Shown: positions 1 through 7,624 of the stretch, one piece after another | Position numbering within the stretch: the stretch's first letter is position 1 | Layout: each line of letters starts with the position of its first letter | IMG/VR virus record: IMGVR_UViG_2671180828_000013 | DNA length: 7,624 bases | Strand: one strand, 5' to 3' | Origin: a virus | Lineage: Duplodnaviria; Heunggongvirae; Uroviricota; Caudoviricetes | Notes under the pieces: model-generated | What the model saw: only the letters and a program-made list of their open reading frames with translations | Database searches by the model: none | Told to the model about the DNA's origin: nothing | Translations under genes and position numbers: made by a program

Positions 1-585
1 TTACGCACCAGCCTTTTTCTGGGTTACATTTAAATGATTAACCTTAGCTTCACATTCTTCATAAATCTCTCTTACAGTATCATCGGGTAACTCTTGTAGA
101 CTCAATGCTAGTGCTCTTTTGACTCCGCTCAATGAGTGCAGTTTTTGAATATCTGTATCAAGCAAAACGGTTAGTAGTTCGGCCCCTTTTCTGATCAATA
201 AGTTGGACAAAATCTCTTGTTCAGATGAAGTTAGCGAGTCCCACGCCCTCATGATGATGGAATCACTATCATCAATTCTTTGTTTTTTTGTTCTTTTTGT
301 TTGTTCAATTGGTTCTTTTTTCATGCTTGGCTCATCACAATAACCATTGACCAGCCACTCCATAGATACATGTTCTCTTTCTGCAATGTTCTGGAGATGG
401 TGCTTTCTTGGTTGTGGTGGCGGCTGATTGTTTCTCCTTTTGTAGTAGTTCTGCAATGTCTGAACGTTTATTCCCCATGCTCTAGCCGCCTCACTTCTCG
501 ATTTGTAACGCTCTGCAAGACGAAAAATCCGTTCGATCACTGGTTCTTTTCCTTCGTCGAGAAAAGAACTGTTTTTCATGTTCAT
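1..585 (-). CDS. Phage CI-type repressor with N-terminal helix-turn-helix domain
   Basis: 194-aa ORF from ATG at 585-583 (second in-frame ATG at 579-577) to TAA at 3-1. AAGGAA Shine-Dalgarno about 9 nt upstream on the minus strand (plus coords 595-600). N-terminal stretch ERIFRLAERYKSRSEAARAWGINVQTLQNYYKRR ... MEWLVNGY fits the HTH pattern of phage CI-type repressors. Divergent to a Ner-like gene as in a Mu-type immunity region. The ORF-track extension to 714 is AT-rich and low-complexity (NNRTNKRTKSR...) and is treated as non-coding leader. Confidence 0.75.
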   Translation of the reverse strand: MNMKNSSFLDEGKEPVIERIFRLAERYKSRSEAARAWGINVQTLQNYYKRRNNQPPPQPRKHHLQNIAEREHVSMEWLVNGYCDEPSMKKEPIEQTKRTKKQRIDDSDSIIMRAWDSLTSSEQEILSNLLIRKGAELLTVLLDTDIQKLHSLSGVKRALALSLQELPDDTVREIYEECEAKVNHLNVTQKKAGA

Positions 586-752
586 GCTCTCAGGTTCCTT
601 TTTATTTATCTTATTGATATTAATAACAAAAACACCGCAAAGAATAAAAAGAACAAAATACCTTGATTTGGTTCTTTTGTTTGTTCTATTATTTACCCGT
701 ACAGATATCCGCACGAATATCCGCGCGGGTAACTTTTTAGAATAGAGGAAGT
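586..752. promoter_or_regulatory. Divergent switch region between repressor and Ner-like genes; expected to hold operators and both promoters
   Basis: 167-bp AT-rich intergenic region between divergently transcribed regulator genes. Contains a tandem direct repeat ATATCCGC (705-712 and 717-724, 12-bp period), a TTATTGATATTAATAA near-palindrome (about 611-626) and a GTTCTTTTGTTTGTTC motif (671-686). Function is inferred from position only. Confidence 0.5.
663..692 (+). promoter_or_regulatory. Candidate sigma70-type early promoter for the Ner-like gene and downstream operon
   Basis: TTGATT (663-668) as -35, 18-bp spacer, TATTAT (687-692) as -10, about 60 bp upstream of the ATG at 753; GAGG ribosome-binding motif at 745-748. 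Hexamer matching by eye only; alternative -10 candidates exist (e.g. TAGAAT at 738-743). Confidence 0.3.
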
Positions 753-1001
753 ATGAGTAGAAGAGAAGTTTCAGATCACGATTGGCCGCCTGAAATCATC
801 AAGGCGCGCTTACACATGGCTGGCTTATCACTGCGCTCTTTATCTTTAAAGGCTGGTTACAGCAGGGATTCGCTGAAAAGCGTATTACGTACTCCTTGCC
901 GACCGTATCAGCAAATAATTGCTGATGCTCTTGGGGTATCGCCTGAAGAAATCTGGCCCAGTCGATACCAGGTTAAGAGCTATATGAGAAAGGCGTCATG
1001 A
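753..1001 (+). CDS. ner: Ner-like DNA-binding transcriptional regulator (Ner/Nlp family)
   Basis: 82-aa ORF. Sequence DWPPEIIKARLHMAGLSLRSLSLKAGYSRDSLKSVLRTPCRPYQQIIADALGVSPEEIWPSRYQ matches the recalled Ner/Nlp pattern (DWH.ADIIAGL ... LS..S...G......L.NAL.R.WPKGE.IIA.AL...P..IWPSRY). TGA stop at 999-1001 is followed 1 nt later by the next ATG. Confidence 0.85.
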   Translation: MSRREVSDHDWPPEIIKARLHMAGLSLRSLSLKAGYSRDSLKSVLRTPCRPYQQIIADALGVSPEEIWPSRYQVKSYMRKAS

Positions 1002-1002
1002 T

Positions 1003-2421
1003 ATGTATGTCATTGCAAAAGAACTGATTGGCGCGCCCGGAATGCCTGCTACAACAAAAGGTATTCGCCAGGCATTACAACGTTACGTACAAGGGAAAAG
1101 CTGTTGTTCCCGTCGTCGCTCAGGCTCTAAAGCAACTGAATACAGCATCGACTGTTTACCTGAAGTGACGCAGCAGGCATTACGTGAACGCTACGCCCTG
1201 CAACTGATGACTCAAAAAGTCGATGAATCACCGGCTCCAGTGGTGACAAAGGCCAGACGCTCGCCTGCCGTGGTTGATGCGGTGGAGGCATATCGCGGAT
1301 CACCACAACTGATGGTCGAACGCCTTAATGCCCTGACTGAAAACCAGCGCCAGGTGGCTGATGCACGAATCGCGATCGTCAGCGAAGTTCTGAAAGTCGC
1401 GCAACAACCTGGTTTCAGCTGTGCGAAGGCTACCGCCCCTTCGGTGGCAGAAGATACGGCAGCTGCGCTGGAGCAGAAAAGCGGCTCAGCAATGAATCAG
1501 CTGTTTAACACACTTTCAGACGGCTGGACGGTGATTTCAGACGGTCTGCATGATGTACAGGCCATGACCGACACCATCAGCGATAAAATTGATGCGCTGG
1601 AGAATGCCGTTTCAGGGATGGGGATTGTGCAGGATATCAGTGCCTTTACGGCCAGTTTTACTGCCCTGAAAGGGAATGCCGCCGCCCTGATTAATGCGCC
1701 CCGTCGCATGGCTGAATCGCTGGCCGGAATGTTTGCCGTGCTGGCGGGGCTGCCCGGCGATCCTTCCCTGTCGCTGACCGGAAAAGCCGGAACGCCGTCC
1801 GGCAGCCTGACCACAAACCGTGACAGCACGACAGAGCAGGCCATGCCGCAGCTGTACCGCACACTTTCTTCCCTGCGTTACACCCTCAGCGAACAGGATG
1901 ATCCGCAGCGCCTGATTGGTCTGACGCCTGCGGCACAGAACAATATCCGTCTGCTGCGGAGCGTCATGCAGAGTGCAGCCCTGGTGTCGCAGGCGCAGAC
2001 GGTCGGAAAACTGCTGGATCAGGTCATCCGGCAGAATACGACGCACGTTCAGGATACTGACCGTGCGGGCGGACTGGCCTGGCTGGAAAGTTCTGCTGAT
2101 GTGCAGCGTATCAACCGGGATTTGAGCGATGTCATGGAACAACAGGTGCTGGATCTGTCCGCACAGGGCCATACCGGCACCGCCCTTACATTACGTGATG
2201 CAGGGCTTGCGCTGACAGAAGATTTAACCACGCGGAGCGTGCATCTTCCCGGTGCTTTTCAGGTCATGGTGCGAACCACCGAACCGGCACTGGTCACGCT
2301 GTACCGTGCCACCGGTAACAGCCGCCGCTGGCAGTATTTTGTCCGCAGAAACAATATCCCCGATCCGGTTTTTGTTCCGGGTGGCCGCCGCGTGGAGGTG
2401 ATCAGTGAGCAGCAGGATTGA
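1003..2421 (+). CDS. Hybrid ORF: MuA-transposase-like N-terminal DNA-binding domain (about the first 150 aa) continuous with a tail protein at the Mu gp43 (N) position (or tape-measure-derived segment); probable deletion-derived in-frame fusion
   Basis: ATG at 1003, TGA at 2419-2421. N-terminus ...APGMPATTKGIRQAL...SGSKATEYSIDCLPEVTQQAL resembles the recalled MuA N-terminus (...LPGLPKTSAGVIYVA...GVKGGKAIEYNANSLPVEAKAAL), and a following ENQRQVADARIAIV stretch resembles the MuA SDSQRRLAEKWLPAV region. No DDE catalytic-core-like sequence follows; the remainder is Ala/Gly/Ser/Thr/Leu-rich like tail/tape-measure proteins. Its 3' end overlaps the hub gene start by 17 nt, the position of the gene preceding the hub in Mu-like tail modules. 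Confidence 0.55.
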   Translation: MYVIAKELIGAPGMPATTKGIRQALQRYVQGKSCCSRRRSGSKATEYSIDCLPEVTQQALRERYALQLMTQKVDESPAPVVTKARRSPAVVDAVEAYRGSPQLMVERLNALTENQRQVADARIAIVSEVLKVAQQPGFSCAKATAPSVAEDTAAALEQKSGSAMNQLFNTLSDGWTVISDGLHDVQAMTDTISDKIDALENAVSGMGIVQDISAFTASFTALKGNAAALINAPRRMAESLAGMFAVLAGLPGDPSLSLTGKAGTPSGSLTTNRDSTTEQAMPQLYRTLSSLRYTLSEQDDPQRLIGLTPAAQNNIRLLRSVMQSAALVSQAQTVGKLLDQVIRQNTTHVQDTDRAGGLAWLESSADVQRINRDLSDVMEQQVLDLSAQGHTGTALTLRDAGLALTEDLTTRSVHLPGAFQVMVRTTEPALVTLYRATGNSRRWQYFVRRNNIPDPVFVPGGRRVEVISEQQD

Positions 2422-3529
2422 ACTGTATATCGGCGGCAGTATTTTTTCCGGCTGGCTGACGGTCAGCGTCCGTCGCTCGCTGGAGCATCTGGCCGGGTCG
2501 TTTGAACTGGGGCTGATGCTGCCCGGTGAGCGCATCCCCTCAGCCCTGCGGACCGGTCAGCCCCTGACGCTCAGAATTAACGGGCAGACGGTCATCAGTG
2601 GCTGGCTGGATCAGGTCAGTCAGCGGATCAGTGCAACCCGTCATCAGATCAGCATCAGCGGTCGGGATAAAACCGGCGACCTGGTGGACTGTGCCGCCAT
2701 CCATCCCGGCAGCCAGTGGCGCAACCGGACGCTGGCACAGATTGCCGCAGATTTATGTGCGCCCTTCGGGATAGCCGTGCGCTGGCAGGTTAACGACGAC
2801 ACGGCTGCACGCCCCTTCAGCTCTTTTACGCTGGAAAACTCAGAAACCGTGGCGGATGCGCTGACCCGTGCTGCCCGGCATCGCGGGGTGCTGGTGACCA
2901 GTAATGCTGACGGCGATCTGGTGTTCACCCAGGCAGGAAGCCAGCAGACGGACAGACTGGTGCTGGGAGATAACCTGCTTGATGCCGATTACAACACGGA
3001 CTGGCGAGGACGATACAGCGAATACCGTGTCCGGGGACACGGGCGCGGTGGTGGCAAACGGGGAGACAGCGAATCCGCCGCCCGTCTGGCAGCACCTGTG
3101 GGCGTCATCAGTGATGAGCAGATCGGCCGCTACCGGCCGAAAATCATCCTCGCCGATCAACAGACAGACATCACCGGTGCACGGCAGCGTGCCCTGCGTG
3201 AAATGCGCCGTGCGATTGCCCGTTCAGAACGGTTTTCTGCCACCGTGCGTGGCTGGTTCCGGGATGATGGCCGGTTATGGGATGTCAATCTGCTGACCGG
3301 TGTTTCAGCCCTGCGTTTCGGTATAGAACAGACTGAACTGCTGGTCTGTCAGGTGGAGTTTTTACTTGATGAGCATAACGGGGAAGTCACCCGGCTGGTA
3401 CTGGCACCGCGTGACGGCTTTATCGTTCCGGCAGAGCCGGACAGTAAGGGCCGGGGTGGTTCCGGTGACGATGTTGATGCCTTTATTCGCCAGCAGATGA
3501 AAAAACAGGGGATCAGCTTTGATGAATGA
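2405..3529 (+). CDS. Baseplate hub protein (Mu gp44 / P2 gpD late-control-D family)
   Basis: 374-aa ORF with GTG start at 2405 preceded by GGAGG (2394-2398) at 6-nt spacing; overlaps the upstream ORF by 17 nt. Size and sequence character (IELYIGGSIFSGWLTVSVRRSLEHLAGSFELGL ...) fit the gpD/gp44 family; TGA at 3527-3529. Confidence 0.8.
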   Translation: MSSRIELYIGGSIFSGWLTVSVRRSLEHLAGSFELGLMLPGERIPSALRTGQPLTLRINGQTVISGWLDQVSQRISATRHQISISGRDKTGDLVDCAAIHPGSQWRNRTLAQIAADLCAPFGIAVRWQVNDDTAARPFSSFTLENSETVADALTRAARHRGVLVTSNADGDLVFTQAGSQQTDRLVLGDNLLDADYNTDWRGRYSEYRVRGHGRGGGKRGDSESAARLAAPVGVISDEQIGRYRPKIILADQQTDITGARQRALREMRRAIARSERFSATVRGWFRDDGRLWDVNLLTGVSALRFGIEQTELLVCQVEFLLDEHNGEVTRLVLAPRDGFIVPAEPDSKGRGGSGDDVDAFIRQQMKKQGISFDE

Positions 3530-4133
3530 TGAAGTGTTCAGCCGCCTGATTGCCCCGGTAACGCGCGGTATTCGCCTGTTGTTTGGCCGGGGCGTTCTGA
3601 CCGGCACACATGACGAACTGAAAATGCAGAATGTGCAGCTCACCGGCATGGACGGCGAAACCTTTGATGATGTGGAGCGTCCCCAGCAGTACGGGCAGAT
3701 CAGCGTTCCCCTGCCGGGTGCGGAAACCTTTTTTGCCTGTCTGGGCGGACAGCGGGATCAGACTGTGGTGCTTGTGGTGGAAGACCGGCGCAGCCGCCCG
3801 ACCGGACTCACAGCCGGAGATACGGGGGTGTATCACCATGAGGGGCACCGGATACGGTTAACAAAGGATGGCCGCATTATTGTGACATGCAAAATGCTGG
3901 AGATTTACGCCGACGAGGGGATGCGGGTGGATACGCCGGAAGCCACCTTTACGGGCAATGTGACGGTGGATAAGAACCTGCATGTTAAGGGTAATTTCGC
4001 GCTTGAGGGTACGGGGAAATCTCAGGGACTGTTCACAATGTCGGATGCCGTTATTGCAGGGATACGGTATTCCGGCCATGTGCATCATGATAACGGCGAA
4101 GGCAGTAAGACAGGAGTGCCGGAGAATGGCTGA
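3522..4133 (+). CDS. Baseplate spike / baseplate assembly protein V-like (Mu gp45 family)
   Basis: ATG at 3522 (the ORF track opens at an in-frame TTG at 3519) overlapping the hub gene stop; about 203 aa, consistent with gp45/gpV-type proteins. Position directly after the hub gene. TGA at 4131-4133 overlaps the next start. Confidence 0.75.
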   Translation: MNDEVFSRLIAPVTRGIRLLFGRGVLTGTHDELKMQNVQLTGMDGETFDDVERPQQYGQISVPLPGAETFFACLGGQRDQTVVLVVEDRRSRPTGLTAGDTGVYHHEGHRIRLTKDGRIIVTCKMLEIYADEGMRVDTPEATFTGNVTVDKNLHVKGNFALEGTGKSQGLFTMSDAVIAGIRYSGHVHHDNGEGSKTGVPENG

Positions 4134-4563
4134 TATTGCAATTGTGTGGGATCAGGGATGCGGTTCGCTGCAACTGAACGGTGCCGACCTGCTGACGGAT
4201 GACAGTCTGCTGACGGCCGTTCTGATTTCGCTGTTTACTGACCGCCGGGCGCTGGCATCGGATGAAATCCCTGACGGTACGCGCGACCGCCGGGGATGGT
4301 GGGGAGACAGTTTTCGCCCGCGCCCCATTGGCTCCCGTCTGTGGCTTCTCAGCCGGGAAAAAACGCTGGCCTCGGTGATAAGCCGTGCCCGTGCTTACGC
4401 GGATGAGGCGCTGGGCTGGCTCAGTCAGGATGGCGTGGCGTCATCCGTGGTCTGTCATGCAGAACGTGTGGGACACGCGCGGCTGGCGCTTTCGGTGCGC
4501 ATAACCCTGCCTGATGGTTCAGTGAGGCCCATGATTTTTTATGCTGATCTTAAGGGGGAGTAA
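4126..4563 (+). CDS. GP46 / gp25-like (GPW family) baseplate wedge protein
   Basis: Start chosen at internal ATG 4126 (MADIAIVWDQGCG...), with AGGAG at 4112-4116 and ATGGCTGA overlap with the preceding stop. The upstream part of the 3982 ORF is out-of-frame overlap with the spike gene. 145 aa, typical for this family; TAA at 4561-4563. Confidence 0.8.
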   Translation: MADIAIVWDQGCGSLQLNGADLLTDDSLLTAVLISLFTDRRALASDEIPDGTRDRRGWWGDSFRPRPIGSRLWLLSREKTLASVISRARAYADEALGWLSQDGVASSVVCHAERVGHARLALSVRITLPDGSVRPMIFYADLKGE

Positions 4564-5645
4564 TGCCTTATCAGCCTTTACCGCTGGCACAGTTAATCAC
4601 GCAGACACAGCAGGATATCAGCCAGCGCCTGCCCGGCTCGCAGCCGGGTGTGAATGAAACCACCCTGAATGCCATTGCTTACGCTCAGGCAGGGTTATCT
4701 GCTCAGGAGCATGAGCATCTGGCCTGGATTGCGCGTCAGATCATCCCGACCGAAGCCGATGAAGCCGAACTGCTGAAACACTGTGCATTCTGGGGCGTCA
4801 TGCGTAAGCCTGCCTCTCGGGGGGACGGGCCGGTTCAGCTGATGCTGACCACGGATGCGGGGATCAAGGAAGGTGTGCTTCTCCAGCGAAGTGATGGCGT
4901 GGTTTACCGTATCACCACCTCCCTGACCGGTAAGGCCGGTACGCTGAATGTCAGTGTGGAAGCCGAAAGTGCCGGTCGTGCGGGGAATGCCCCGGCAGGG
5001 ACAAAACTGACATTTATCACACCGCAGGCGGGGATCAACCAGACGGCCACGGTGACCGGAACGGGGATCACCGGTGGTGCGGATGTGGAAACCGTGCCGG
5101 AGCTGCTTTCCCGTCTGGTTTTCCGGGTGCAGAATCCACCGTCCGGCGGCACGCAGTATGATTTTGAACGCTGGGCGCGTGAAGTGCCGGGCGTGACGCG
5201 GGCATGGTGCCGCCCGGAATGGCCGCAGGCGGGCAGCGTGGGGGTAACGTTTGTTCAGGATAATAACCCGGATATTTTCCCCGGTGACGGTGATGTTCAG
5301 CGGGTGGCGGATTATATCCGCAGTCATGATGATCCGGCGACCGGCCAGCCTGTCGGACAGCCTCTGGGGCCGACGGTGACCGTGTTTAAACTGACCAATA
5401 AGCCGGTGCCCTTCAGCATCAGGATCATCCCGAAAACACCGGAGAATCAGGCGGCCGTAAAACAGGCGCTGACCGACCTGTTGTATAACGAATCCCGGCC
5501 CGGCGGTCTGGTTCTGCCGTCGTCTTTCTGGCGGGCGGTGGCAGGGGTGAAAAATCTGGAGGATTTTGAAGTGCGCAGTCCGCTGACGTCAGTTCAGGCG
5601 GGAGACAGTGAGCTGCTGACGGTAGGAGAAATCACATGGCTGTAA
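4563..5645 (+). CDS. Baseplate J-like protein (Mu gp47 family)
   Basis: 360-aa ORF; ATG at 4563 in a TAATG overlap with the previous stop; GGGGGAG Shine-Dalgarno at 4554-4560. Size and position after the gp25-like gene fit baseplate J. Confidence 0.85.
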   Translation: MPYQPLPLAQLITQTQQDISQRLPGSQPGVNETTLNAIAYAQAGLSAQEHEHLAWIARQIIPTEADEAELLKHCAFWGVMRKPASRGDGPVQLMLTTDAGIKEGVLLQRSDGVVYRITTSLTGKAGTLNVSVEAESAGRAGNAPAGTKLTFITPQAGINQTATVTGTGITGGADVETVPELLSRLVFRVQNPPSGGTQYDFERWAREVPGVTRAWCRPEWPQAGSVGVTFVQDNNPDIFPGDGDVQRVADYIRSHDDPATGQPVGQPLGPTVTVFKLTNKPVPFSIRIIPKTPENQAAVKQALTDLLYNESRPGGLVLPSSFWRAVAGVKNLEDFEVRSPLTSVQAGDSELLTVGEITWL

Positions 5646-6196
5646 CCCTGACCCCGCATCAGCGCGCCCTGTTGCAGTTACTGCCTGACGGGCTGGCATG
5701 GGACAAGCGTCCGTCATCCGTACTGGCATCATTATGTCTGGGCCTCAGTCATTCGACAGCGCGTGTATCCTGGACGGGTAAACAGCTGCTTGCCGAGCGT
5801 TTCCCTGACACGTCGCGCCTGCTGCTGGAAGACTGGGAGCGTTATCTCGGGCTTCCCGAGTGTGATATGGCCGGAGCCACCCTCACGGAGCGACAGCGTT
5901 ATGCCGGAAATAAATACCGGATGAAGCCCTCGCTGAACCGTGAATTTTATATCCGGTTTGCGGCGGAGTTTGGTTATCAGATTGACATTCAGCCCTCACC
6001 GGATTCGCAGTGGGTCAGTATTGTCACGATTAACAGTGAAACCGGCTACCGGAATATGAATGTGCTGGATGATATTCTCACGCCGCTGCGTATTTATGAA
6101 GGCGGTGCGCTGGAATGTATTCTGAACCGTTATAAGCCTGCATGGCAGACGTTTATTTACGTTTATGCAAACAGCCATGAAGAGGAGACTATTTAA
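5636..6196 (+). CDS. Mu gp48-like baseplate/tail protein (YmfQ / DUF2313 family)
   Basis: 186-aa ORF; ATG at 5636 overlapping the baseplate J stop (TAA 5643-5645); AGGAG at 5624-5628. N-terminus [26 protein letters not shown] and the size fit the gp48/YmfQ family that follows baseplate J in Mu-like modules. Confidence 0.8.
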
Positions 6197-7077
6197 TGTT
6201 TCATGTTGATAATAATTCCGGCGTGGCGAATATGCCTGCGCTGGCACCGGCGCAGAGTAATACCACAACCTGGTTTACCGAAGGTGACGGACAAAAAGGT
6301 ATCAGCTGGATTGGTCAGGACTGGCTGAATATTCTCCAGGCCGAACTGCTGAATATTCTGGCTGAAGCCAGTATTCAGCCGGATAAGGCGCAGTTAAACC
6401 AGCTTACGCTGTCCATTAAAGCCATTATCGCTGCGAATGCCTTTTCCCGGAAAAATAACCTGAAAGAAATTGCTGATGCCGGTGCGGAGGCCCAGCGTCT
6501 GGCCCGTGGTTATCTTGGTCTGGGGACGCTTGCCACAAAAAACAGTCTTGGTCCCGGTGACGTTAATGCCCTGGCGAAGGATCAGAATCTCGCCGACCTG
6601 GAGAATAAGGGAACCGCCCGTAATAATCTGGATGTTTACAGCAAAAGCGAAGGTGATAACCGTTACCTGCGCAGGGAGCAGAACGGCGCAGACATTCCGG
6701 ATAAAGGGGCTTTTATCGATAACGTCGGTTTACGGGAAACGGTAAACAGGGCGGCGAATGCCCTGCCATCGGACGGCACCGCCGTTGCCGCGAACAGGCT
6801 GGCAAATGCCCACACAATTAATGGTGTTCCCTTTGACGGGACGCAGGATATCACTATCTCATCAGGAACAGTAACCGCCATAAGACTGGGGTCGGTGACC
6901 GCACATATGCCCGGAACATGGGAAAGCTGGGATCTGAATCTGGGGGGCGGCAATGTTCTTACCGGAATTAAAGTACAGGATGTCGGTAAGAATACGGCAG
7001 ATAACGTCGGCGGCGTGTATTACCGGCCGTTGCAGTATCTGTTAAATGGAGCATGGGTGACGGCTGCAAGTATATAA
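6196..7077 (+). CDS. Tail fibre protein (Mu S-like: constant N-terminal part plus a short variable C-terminal part)
   Basis: 293-aa ORF; ATG at 6196 in a TAATG overlap; GAGGAG at 6183-6188. N-terminus [33 protein letters not shown]...[16 protein letters not shown] resembles conserved tail fibre N-terminal domains. Contains a gix-like site at codons about 173-181. TAA at 7075-7077. Confidence 0.8.
6713..6738. other. gix/hix-like crossover site for a Gin/Hin/Pin/Cin-family serine DNA invertase
   Basis: TTATCGATAACGTCGGTTTACGGGAA matches the recalled Mu gix sequence TTATCCAAAACCTCGGTTTACAGGAA at 22 of 26 positions (13 of 14 in the right half). It lies about 175 codons into the tail fibre gene, where the constant/variable boundary sits in Mu S. 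A convergent tail fibre assembly gene follows downstream. Confidence 0.55.
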
Positions 7078-7085
7078 TGATATTC

Positions 7086-7105
7086 AGAAGGCCTTCCGGC
7101 CTTCT
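7086..7105 (+). terminator. Hairpin terminator between convergent tail fibre and tail fibre assembly genes
   Basis: Perfect 8-bp inverted repeat AGAAGGCC (7086-7093) / GGCCTTCT (7098-7105) with TTCC loop, followed by TTATT on the plus strand. Sits in the 31-bp gap between the stops at 7077 and 7109. Confidence 0.6.
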
Positions 7106-7108
7106 TTA

Positions 7109-7624
7109 TTACTGTGGCTGCTCAGGCCATTTAATGGCGTTAAATTCAGCTTCTGTTTTAATGGCGGGTAGTTCCATTTTCTTCACCTGACTGATGTATG
7201 CCATCCATTGGGTAAGTGCTGCTCTGTCTTCATCGCTGATGGTGCCCAGTTGTAGCTCCGTTCTCCAGTCATTAATTTTTTCATATGCCTGATTAAGATA
7301 TGACTGGCGCATTGCTTCCAGTTTTCTTGCGTAGTTAACCGGAATACGGGAGATTATGCCATTATCAAACTTCCAGTTTCCTGAAATATCCGTGCCTTCA
7401 GGGAGTTCATCGACCTCAACCACAGAAAACCCCGCAGGATACAGCGCCGAGGCGTCCTGTGATATTGAGCAGATAACGCCGCTGTCAGGTGTTATGCAAA
7501 GTTTATATTTTTTGGTGAATAATGGCAGGGATTCGTAGAAATCCTTACCATCTTCACTCTGGAAATACTGAACATTATTACCATATGGCATATTTTCAGG
7601 ATAATAACGGGTTATATTTTTTAG
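7109..7624 (-). CDS. Tail fibre assembly protein (Mu U / U'-type chaperone), 5'-partial at the window edge
   Basis: Stop TAA at 7111-7109 (minus). C-terminus LGTISDEDRAALTQWMAYISQVKK ... KWPEQPQ is the classic tail fibre assembly motif, and YFQSEDGKDFYE ... GVICSI ... SGNWKFDNGI matches recalled Mu U features. The minus-strand frame stays open from the in-window ATG (7591-7589) to the window end (LKNITRYYPEN upstream), so the true start probably lies just beyond 7624. Confidence 0.8.
   Translation of the reverse strand, partial: LKNITRYYPENMPYGNNVQYFQSEDGKDFYESLPLFTKKYKLCITPDSGVICSISQDASALYPAGFSVVEVDELPEGTDISGNWKFDNGIISRIPVNYARKLEAMRQSYLNQAYEKINDWRTELQLGTISDEDRAALTQWMAYISQVKKMELPAIKTEAEFNAIKWPEQPQ

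Follow-up and report, generated by a model that had tools for sequence, protein, structure and literature searches.

A putative hybrid repressor with a CI-type head and a Mu c-type tail in the exchangeable immunity cassette of a deleted Mu-like Escherichia coli prophage

Phage Mu is the textbook case of a temperate phage whose repressor and transposase carry a common DNA-binding domain, and in which immunity blocks transpososome assembly at the enhancer. What, then, is to be made of a Mu-like immunity region in which these two proteins seem to bind DNA through domains of unrelated fold? This question is raised by the left end of a 7,624-nt stretch of viral DNA (IMG/VR record IMGVR_UViG_2671180828_000013; hereafter, the whole stretch is referred to as the window). 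The original prediction, made from the sequence alone, had described a CI-type helix-turn-helix (HTH) repressor next to a Mu-type Ner and a protein with a MuA-type DNA-binding domain, and had read this combination as the outcome of an exchange of the immunity module. We found that positions 1-1432 make up the region for lysogeny and early control in a transposable E. coli prophage of the Mu family, Sp18-like and of the type present in O157 and Shiga toxin-producing E. coli (STEC) strains (open reading frame (ORF) map, family scans, and megablast searches of 5,426 complete E. coli genomes). All three predicted components are present, namely the repressor gene (1-585, minus strand; 194 amino acids (aa), MNMKN...; PHROG 3037 "transcriptional repressor", 3e-58; an annotated coding sequence (CDS) in the 99.7%-identical intact relative L001), ner (753-1001, plus strand; 82 aa; Pfam HTH_35 (PF13693), 69.5 bits against a cutoff of 25), and the MuA-type domain (PF02316, 28.1 bits, cutoff 23.3). 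Overall, we regard it as probable that the repressor is a hybrid, with a CI-type head and a Mu c-type tail, encoded in an exchangeable cassette of about 1 kb in a Mu-like prophage, and that this copy of the prophage was crippled by a deletion.

In agreement with the original prediction, the N-terminal domain of the repressor (codons 16-80; 346-540, minus strand) is predicted to be a five-helix HTH of the CI/Cro/XRE type and not a Mu-type winged helix. An AlphaFold2 (AF2) model built from 22 family members (mean predicted local distance difference test score (pLDDT), 74.8) was confident for each domain and disordered at residues 1-11 and 86-103, and it placed helices at residues 15-23, 29-36, 40-48, 60-70, and 74-79 (model numbering), with no beta wing and with pLDDT means of about 78-91 in 10-residue blocks of the N-domain. 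Structural matches in the PDB (Foldseek) included P22 c2, 434 repressor and Cro, ImmR, SinR, 186 CI, and lambda cI, at a target-normalised template modelling (TM) score of about 0.7, a root mean square deviation of 2.3-3.3 A, and probabilities of about 0.5-1.0 (mostly 0.9-1.0; lambda cI was lowest). The best 50 PDB matches were all of CI/Cro/XRE types and the best 50 viral structure matches were all Cro/C1-type, and a Mu-type winged helix was missing from both sets. Because Pfam and NCBIfam returned only sub-threshold matches for the window repressor (HTH_23, HTH_psq, and a weak DicA match), the domain type was settled through relatives and structure; a PDB sequence search with this protein gave nothing useful. 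PF07022 (Phage_CI_repr) was matched by 15 of the 22 relatives at E <= 0.01 (best E, 7.4e-6), and several sources label relatives as "bacteriophage CI repressor".

The same searches gave no sign of a Mu-type DNA-binding domain in the repressor. PF02316 was matched in Pfam by neither the window repressor nor its relatives, and it was present in every relative of Mu c (24/24). In BLASTP, the window repressor and the intact transposase of its own phage aligned at a best E of 0.94, out of register, against an E of 6e-15 and 41% identity over 64 N-terminal residues for Mu c and MuA as the positive control. No S24 peptidase domain was matched in the window repressor or any of the 22 relatives (Pfam), and no other domain was detected. 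The protein thus resembles P22 c2, 434 cI, 186 CI, and DicA in the predicted five-helix fold of its N-domain, and most members of its family resemble the CI/Cro (PF07022/PF01381) repressors through weak-to-moderate PF07022 matches; unlike those repressors, it has neither the S24 autocleavage domain nor a C-domain of the 186-CI type, and carries a Mu c-type module instead.

This C-terminal module is helical (codons 106-192; 10-270, minus strand) and follows a Lys-rich, poorly conserved linker with variable, gapped alignment columns, which is predicted to be disordered (codons 87-104; 274-327, minus strand; pLDDT < 50 at model residues 86-103). Its similarity to the C-terminal half of Mu c suggests that the repressor is a hybrid, so that the original description of the repressor as unrelated to its Mu counterpart applies to the DNA-binding head and fails for the C-terminal half. 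When profiles of CI and Mu repressor families were searched, as the original prediction had proposed, the C-half of the window repressor matched PHROG 7148, the family of Mu c (Mu c match, 6.9e-73), at 2e-7, and the C-half of Mu c matched PHROG 3037 at 1e-4. Alignment of the two families with hhalign was confined to the C-halves (109-185 with 99-177, E 1.5e-4). When 1.84 billion representative proteins were searched exhaustively with a profile, the repressor family comprised 1,141 representative clusters (E <= 1e-3), mostly of proteins about 190 aa long that matched end to end, and a few further proteins matched in the C-module only, namely P0183 (5e-17), P0159 (2e-21), and P0205 (5e-13). The N-termini of these three bridging proteins are PF02316 Mu-type DNA-binding domains (Pfam), and P0183 shares 41% identity with the window C-module (BLASTP, E 9e-16), with tails reading ...NLTDKQANA and ...NVTQKKAGA, respectively. 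Hence, one and the same C-terminal module occurs behind either type of head and is a portable module. At the P0183 locus (L009), ner lies next door and the A' backbone is the same from residue ~57; there, unlike in the window, the N-termini of repressor and A' match each other (44% identity, E 8e-13), which is the classical Mu arrangement. Foldseek searches with the whole model were uninformative on the C-module since the HTH dominates the matches, and NCBIfam holds a model neither for the window repressor family nor for Mu c.

Multimerisation and Clp-dependent turnover of Mu c are associated with its C-terminal module. The window repressor ends in ...QKKAGA (codons 189-194; 4-21, minus strand), an instance of a tail, K-[KQ]-A-x-A, that is conserved in the family and that resembles both the ...VKKAV end of Mu c and the ...RRKKAI end of MuA, the latter listed as a ClpX degron (PMC8138137). 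We infer from these similarities that the Mu c-type module, with its ...KKAGA tail, would mediate both oligomerisation and control of the repressor, the latter probably by Clp-type proteolysis or modulation as in Mu c and not by RecA-stimulated cleavage.

Modular exchange of the immunity region is directly visible when the window is aligned with a sister type of E. coli prophage (L005), whose repressor is 43% identical to that of the window. DNA identity is 98.6% over positions 1-73, drops to 46.8% over 74-1136, and returns to 95.6% over 1137-1432. The heterologous block of about 1.06 kb takes in the first ~170 codons of the repressor gene, the switch region, ner, and codons 1-45 of A; the last 24 repressor codons lie outside the cassette, at 98.6% identity between heteroimmune prophages. 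Third-position GC content (GC3) is 0.33-0.43 within the cassette, and in gene A it steps from 0.33 in codons 1-45 to 0.60 in codons 46-696, a step that coincides with the cassette boundary. Mu and D108, compared as a control, showed a matching geometry: they are nearly identical from attL through the final codons of c and heterologous over the remainder of c, the operators, ner, and some 65 codons at the start of A, and identity resumes at Mu position ~1529 (A codon ~67). The cassette is thus exchanged as a unit between related prophages, as in Mu/D108, and in both cases its boundaries fall within the 3' end of the repressor gene on one side and within the Ialpha-coding part of A on the other. 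Two kinds of cassette exist in the lineage, one with a winged-helix repressor and a winged-helix A (L009) and the other with a CI-type HTH repressor and a winged-helix A (window); the DNA of L009 is too diverged from that of the window to show sharp cassette boundaries. The exchange postulated by the original prediction is borne out in the form of this cassette; as a recent event in this prophage it is not, the arrangement being old in the lineage, as discussed below.

Ner shares 43% identity with its Mu counterpart (E 3e-14), and its gene, the first of the early operon, lies upstream of A with its stop codon 1 nt before the A start codon. What remains of A is the first 143 codons (A'; 1003-1432, plus strand), comprising the Ialpha winged helix and the start of Ibeta; the PF02316 match spans residues 6-141, PHROG 310 (transposase) is matched at 1.5e-34, and residues 1-143 are identical to the intact transposase of L001. 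All transposases of the lineage carry, without variation, a signature of Mu c and MuA (PG[ML]P..G..G.KA.EY..LP), and Mu c itself detects the N-terminus of the transposase of this phage (E 0.001). The intact transposase of this phage is only 22% identical to MuA, so that a change of specificity "relative to Mu", as originally put forward, says little. In organisation, the locus resembles Mu and D108 in its leftmost repressor gene divergent from ner-A-B, its Ner, the Ialpha domain on A, the Mu c-like C-module, and its AT-rich left end; it departs from them in the predicted CI/Cro-type head, the distant transposase, and the lack of an IHF consensus in the switch.

We then considered where these proteins might act. 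The divergent switch between repressor gene and ner (586-752; 167 bp; GC 0.329) holds a single predicted sigma-70 promoter, which points rightward (-35 TTGATT at 663-668, -10 TATTAT at 687-692). Its -35 is bracketed by an imperfect inverted repeat (I2, 640-685; 80% complementary), a candidate operator/enhancer element that contains an inverted pair of GTTCTTTT (647-654 minus, 671-678 plus); the site at 671 is retained in Hafnia and, in approximate form, in Salmonella and Edwardsiella. The window holds seven copies of GTTCTTTT, all within 290-1024, whereas shuffles of the local kilobase gave a mean of 0.13 copies and reached seven in 0 of 2,000 cases; seven copies of any 8-mer were reached in 4 of 2,000 local shuffles. 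AAAGAAC is likewise the most enriched 7-mer in the immunity region of Pseudomonas phage VW-6B (L008), with six copies there, and VW-6B has the same rep/ner/A/B layout. The locus with a Mu-type head (L009) has a different enriched word, ATATCAAA, and enrichment of the GTTCTTTT type is absent in L004 and L005. GTTCTTTT was tried as an operator and set aside: given its lack of enrichment in L004 and L005, its mostly coding copies, and the co-variation of the recognition helices of repressor and Ialpha across relatives, the protein that reads it could not be assigned. Just downstream of the predicted -10 lies a palindrome (I7, 693-732; TTACCCG...GATATCCGCACGAATATCCG...CGGGTAA) whose GATAaCCGCnCGgTTATCC...GTAAC core is conserved in four of five relatives, and which is, on sequence grounds, the obvious candidate for the Ner operator.

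Taken together, these features are consistent with a scheme in which the CI-type head of the repressor would bind the 167-bp switch and shut off the rightward early promoter for ner-A-B, Ner would act at the conserved palindrome, and A-Ialpha would recognise an enhancer inside the cassette, the last of which would explain why A-Ialpha co-segregates with the cassette. In Mu, the enhancer bound by the Ialpha domain of MuA overlaps the operators O1-O3 (PMC3145075). By extension, the CI-type HTH and Ialpha may be kept in one 1.06-kb cassette through overlapping sites in the switch, for which the GTTCTTTT-type repeats are candidates, with the competition of repressor and transposase at the operator/enhancer, known from Mu, upheld by convergent specificity and not by common ancestry of the two domains, and with the C-module as an oligomerisation and turnover "chassis" for alternative heads; we offer this extension as speculation and think it rather unlikely as a whole.

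Several observations weigh against the reading of a hybrid repressor in a Mu-like cassette or against parts of it. The window repressor itself has no PF07022 match at E <= 0.01, and its relatives alone match. The hhalign probability for the C-half of Mu c is just 51%, which is why the claim of homology to Mu c rests mainly on the bridging proteins, and ClpXP control would be extrapolated from Mu and from the similarity of the tails only. In the switch, the promoter scan found no leftward promoter for the repressor gene, the IHF consensus WATCAANNNNTTR was not found in the window, and no binding site could be assigned to any protein. Of the seven GTTCTTTT copies, five are coding (codons for K-E-P, K-E-L, and the like), and the enrichment may in part reflect this. 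Finally, the deletion junction described below occurs in no other public sequence and could be either strain-specific or an artefact.

The most probable alternative is that operator and enhancer are uncoupled in this lineage, such that the repressor and A-Ialpha bind non-overlapping sites and the repressor controls transcription only, with no direct block of the transpososome. The unrelated folds of the two DNA-binding domains are in keeping with it, as is the lack of a motif assignable to either the repressor or Ialpha. On the other side, A codons 1-45 co-segregate with the repressor and the switch, as in Mu/D108, which would be unexpected if Ialpha read nothing there, and the Ialpha signature is conserved across the lineage; yet the co-segregation could simply mirror where homology allows crossover. 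We consider uncoupling possible but somewhat doubtful.

The deletion itself is evident from comparison with intact prophages. Window positions 1-1435 (repressor gene, ner, and the 5' part of A) are 99.7-99.8% identical to the left end of intact prophages, and positions 1431-7624 match the late region of the same prophage at 99.9% identity in NZ_OZ547136.1, where the two blocks lie 25.6 kb apart; 25,626 bp are absent from the window relative to this genome. The junction lies at 1431-1432, where the parents share only the dinucleotide TA (the window and the two parental sequences were read base by base). The resulting 472-aa ORF (1003-2421) continues from residues 1-143 of A, in frame, into the C-terminal 329 residues of gpN ('N; 1433-2421, plus strand), a DNA-circularization/baseplate-hub protein (PHROG 184 baseplate hub, 3.5e-57 over residues 143-469; annotated "DNA circularization protein" in the intact prophage L002). 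The DDE catalytic core and the C-terminal domains of A, which is 696 aa long in intact relatives, are deleted here, so that the downstream protein of the original prediction does carry a MuA-type domain and yet is no transposase, being 143 aa of A fused to gpN. Altogether, the deletion took out the transposase core and B, together with the early, lysis, and head genes and most of the tail genes, and an intact repressor and Ner, the A'-'N fusion ORF, and the baseplate and fibre genes are left. The element may at most confer immunity, and the fusion has no evident function.

It could be argued that the A'-'N junction is an artefact of assembly, curation, or sampling, and that the immunity region comes from an intact prophage such as that of NZ_OZ547136.1. 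A junction-spanning 37-mer had zero matches in GTDB species genomes, IMG/VR, and JGI metagenomes, and none of the 5,426 complete E. coli genomes spans the junction; moreover, the window begins exactly at the stop codon of the repressor gene, and its other end falls 6 nt within the start of the fibre-assembly gene. However, illegitimate recombination typically involves such short microhomology (2 bp), which is not long enough to lead a k-mer assembler astray; the reading frame continues across the fusion; and an analogous A'-gp36 fusion exists in the independent prophage L009. On these grounds we judge an artefact unlikely, and favour a genuine deletion in a prophage that kept its immunity cassette. 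As an observation in its own right, the L009 fusion (3999-4547, minus strand; logan SRR23602822_23) joins A' residues 1-103 to gp36, with tail genes directly after. Recurrence of such deletions between A' and a late gene suggests a common route of decay or domestication that spares the immunity and tail genes.

We next turn to the composition of the region, on which the idea of an exchange had originally been based. As noticed then by eye, the repressor gene and switch are AT-richer than the structural genes (GC 0.33-0.47 across the repressor gene, switch, and ner against 0.56-0.60 in most late genes), and the proposed computation of GC and codon usage confirmed that neither GC nor GC3 is uniform. 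The repressor gene has a GC of 0.402 and a GC3 of 0.369, ner has 0.470 and 0.434, and the late genes N to gp47 have GC3 values of 0.61-0.65. This contrast is sharper in the window than in an intact relative, because the deletion removed an early region of intermediate GC (0.42-0.52). Nor is AT-richness evidence of exchange, because Mu, in which c and A carry homologous domains, shows the same dip at its left end (GC 0.375-0.387 over the first 1.2 kb against about 0.55 in the late genes).

The distribution of the architecture speaks in the same sense. Intact prophages in many complete E. coli genomes carry this immunity region at 99.7% identity, and the order of repressor family, Ner, Mu transposase, and MuB recurs in Salmonella, Edwardsiella, Hafnia, a second E. 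coli type, and Pseudomonas phage VW-6B. A PF02316 match is on record for three of the four transposases from Salmonella, Edwardsiella, Hafnia, and the second E. coli type, that of Edwardsiella having Mu-transpos_C only. The repressor gene is leftmost and divergent from ner-A-B in the intact L001 and L002 and in L004-L008, and the repressor architecture extends across Enterobacterales and a Pseudomonas phage at 34-55% protein identity. Such host breadth suggests monophyly of the CI-HTH form and an age equal to that of the lineage. The hybrid architecture is thus lineage-wide and old, and not the product of a recent event in this prophage. A recent replacement of a Mu-type c by a foreign, AT-rich CI-type immunity gene in this element would fit the AT-rich region, the compositional step at the cassette boundary, and the fact that cassettes do swap between close relatives, but it is very improbable in view of this conservation, of the equally AT-rich left end of Mu, which has undergone no such exchange, and of the difference from the Mu type being limited to the DNA-binding head and not extending over the whole gene. 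The last alternative, that the repressor N-domain is a Mu-type winged helix diverged past recognition with no domain swap at all, draws on the position, length, and C-module shared with Mu c and is scarcely credible against a wingless five-helix model, uniformly CI/Cro/XRE-type structural matches, and relatives that match PF07022 and never PF02316, the domain of every Mu c relative.

The comparison with sequenced Mu-like phages that the original prediction called for also placed the family in phages that have been isolated. Family members occur in Yersinia vB_YpM_5, vB_YpM_6, and Tongde (34-41% identity), where they are annotated as hypothetical proteins, and the repressors of isolated Mu-like phages as a whole, including the "C repressor" of VW-6B, are 34-42% identical to that of the window. 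SfMu was considered as the closest phage and ruled out, since its repressor is of the D108 type (PMC4406740). For the Mu-like Yersinia pestis phages, a "C-repressor" and Ner were named without domain analysis, and the phages were reported to be lysogenic at 26 C and to grow lytically at 37 C (PMC10434027); the repressor family may include naturally thermosensitive members. Unlike the deleted window copy, the Yersinia phages and VW-6B are complete and plaque-forming (PMC10434027). Separately, two records of Stx-converting phages (LC727881.1 and LC727895.1) contain a region annotated as "inserted Mu-like phage" with a family repressor (42.5% identity), which implies that a Mu-like element had transposed into Stx prophages.

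No description of the hybrid repressor architecture was found in the literature searched, with much of the Mu literature outside that search and a prior description possible; apparently, it represents a widespread and undescribed variant of the Mu immunity system. In this lineage, the head of the repressor alone would have been swapped, and the Mu c-type tail, Ner, and the enhancer-binding domain of the transposase were kept. The lineage may therefore provide a natural experiment on whether a shared domain is needed to couple immunity to transposition. It takes in prophages of O157/STEC strains as well as the temperature-switching phages of Yersinia pestis, and the C-module, together with the exact boundaries of the cassette that sets specificity, could be useful for annotating and typing Mu-like prophages, whose repressor genes are at present labelled "hypothetical protein".

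The remainder of the window retains the order of the late genes: the 3' part of N is followed by P/gp44, gp45, gp46, gp47, gp48, a fibre gene, and a convergent fibre-assembly gene. The stretch missing from the window includes, in L002 (21517-21596), a RefSeq-annotated "tRNA-OTHER" that lies between the genes for virion morphogenesis and the minor head protein. At the right end, positions 6196-7624 hold a short fibre gene (293 aa) and then the convergent fibre-assembly gene, which runs off the window end. In an intact relative, a partial fibre gene and a Gin-like recombinase gene lie just past this point, and the window end looks to fall within an apparent invertible segment of the G type.

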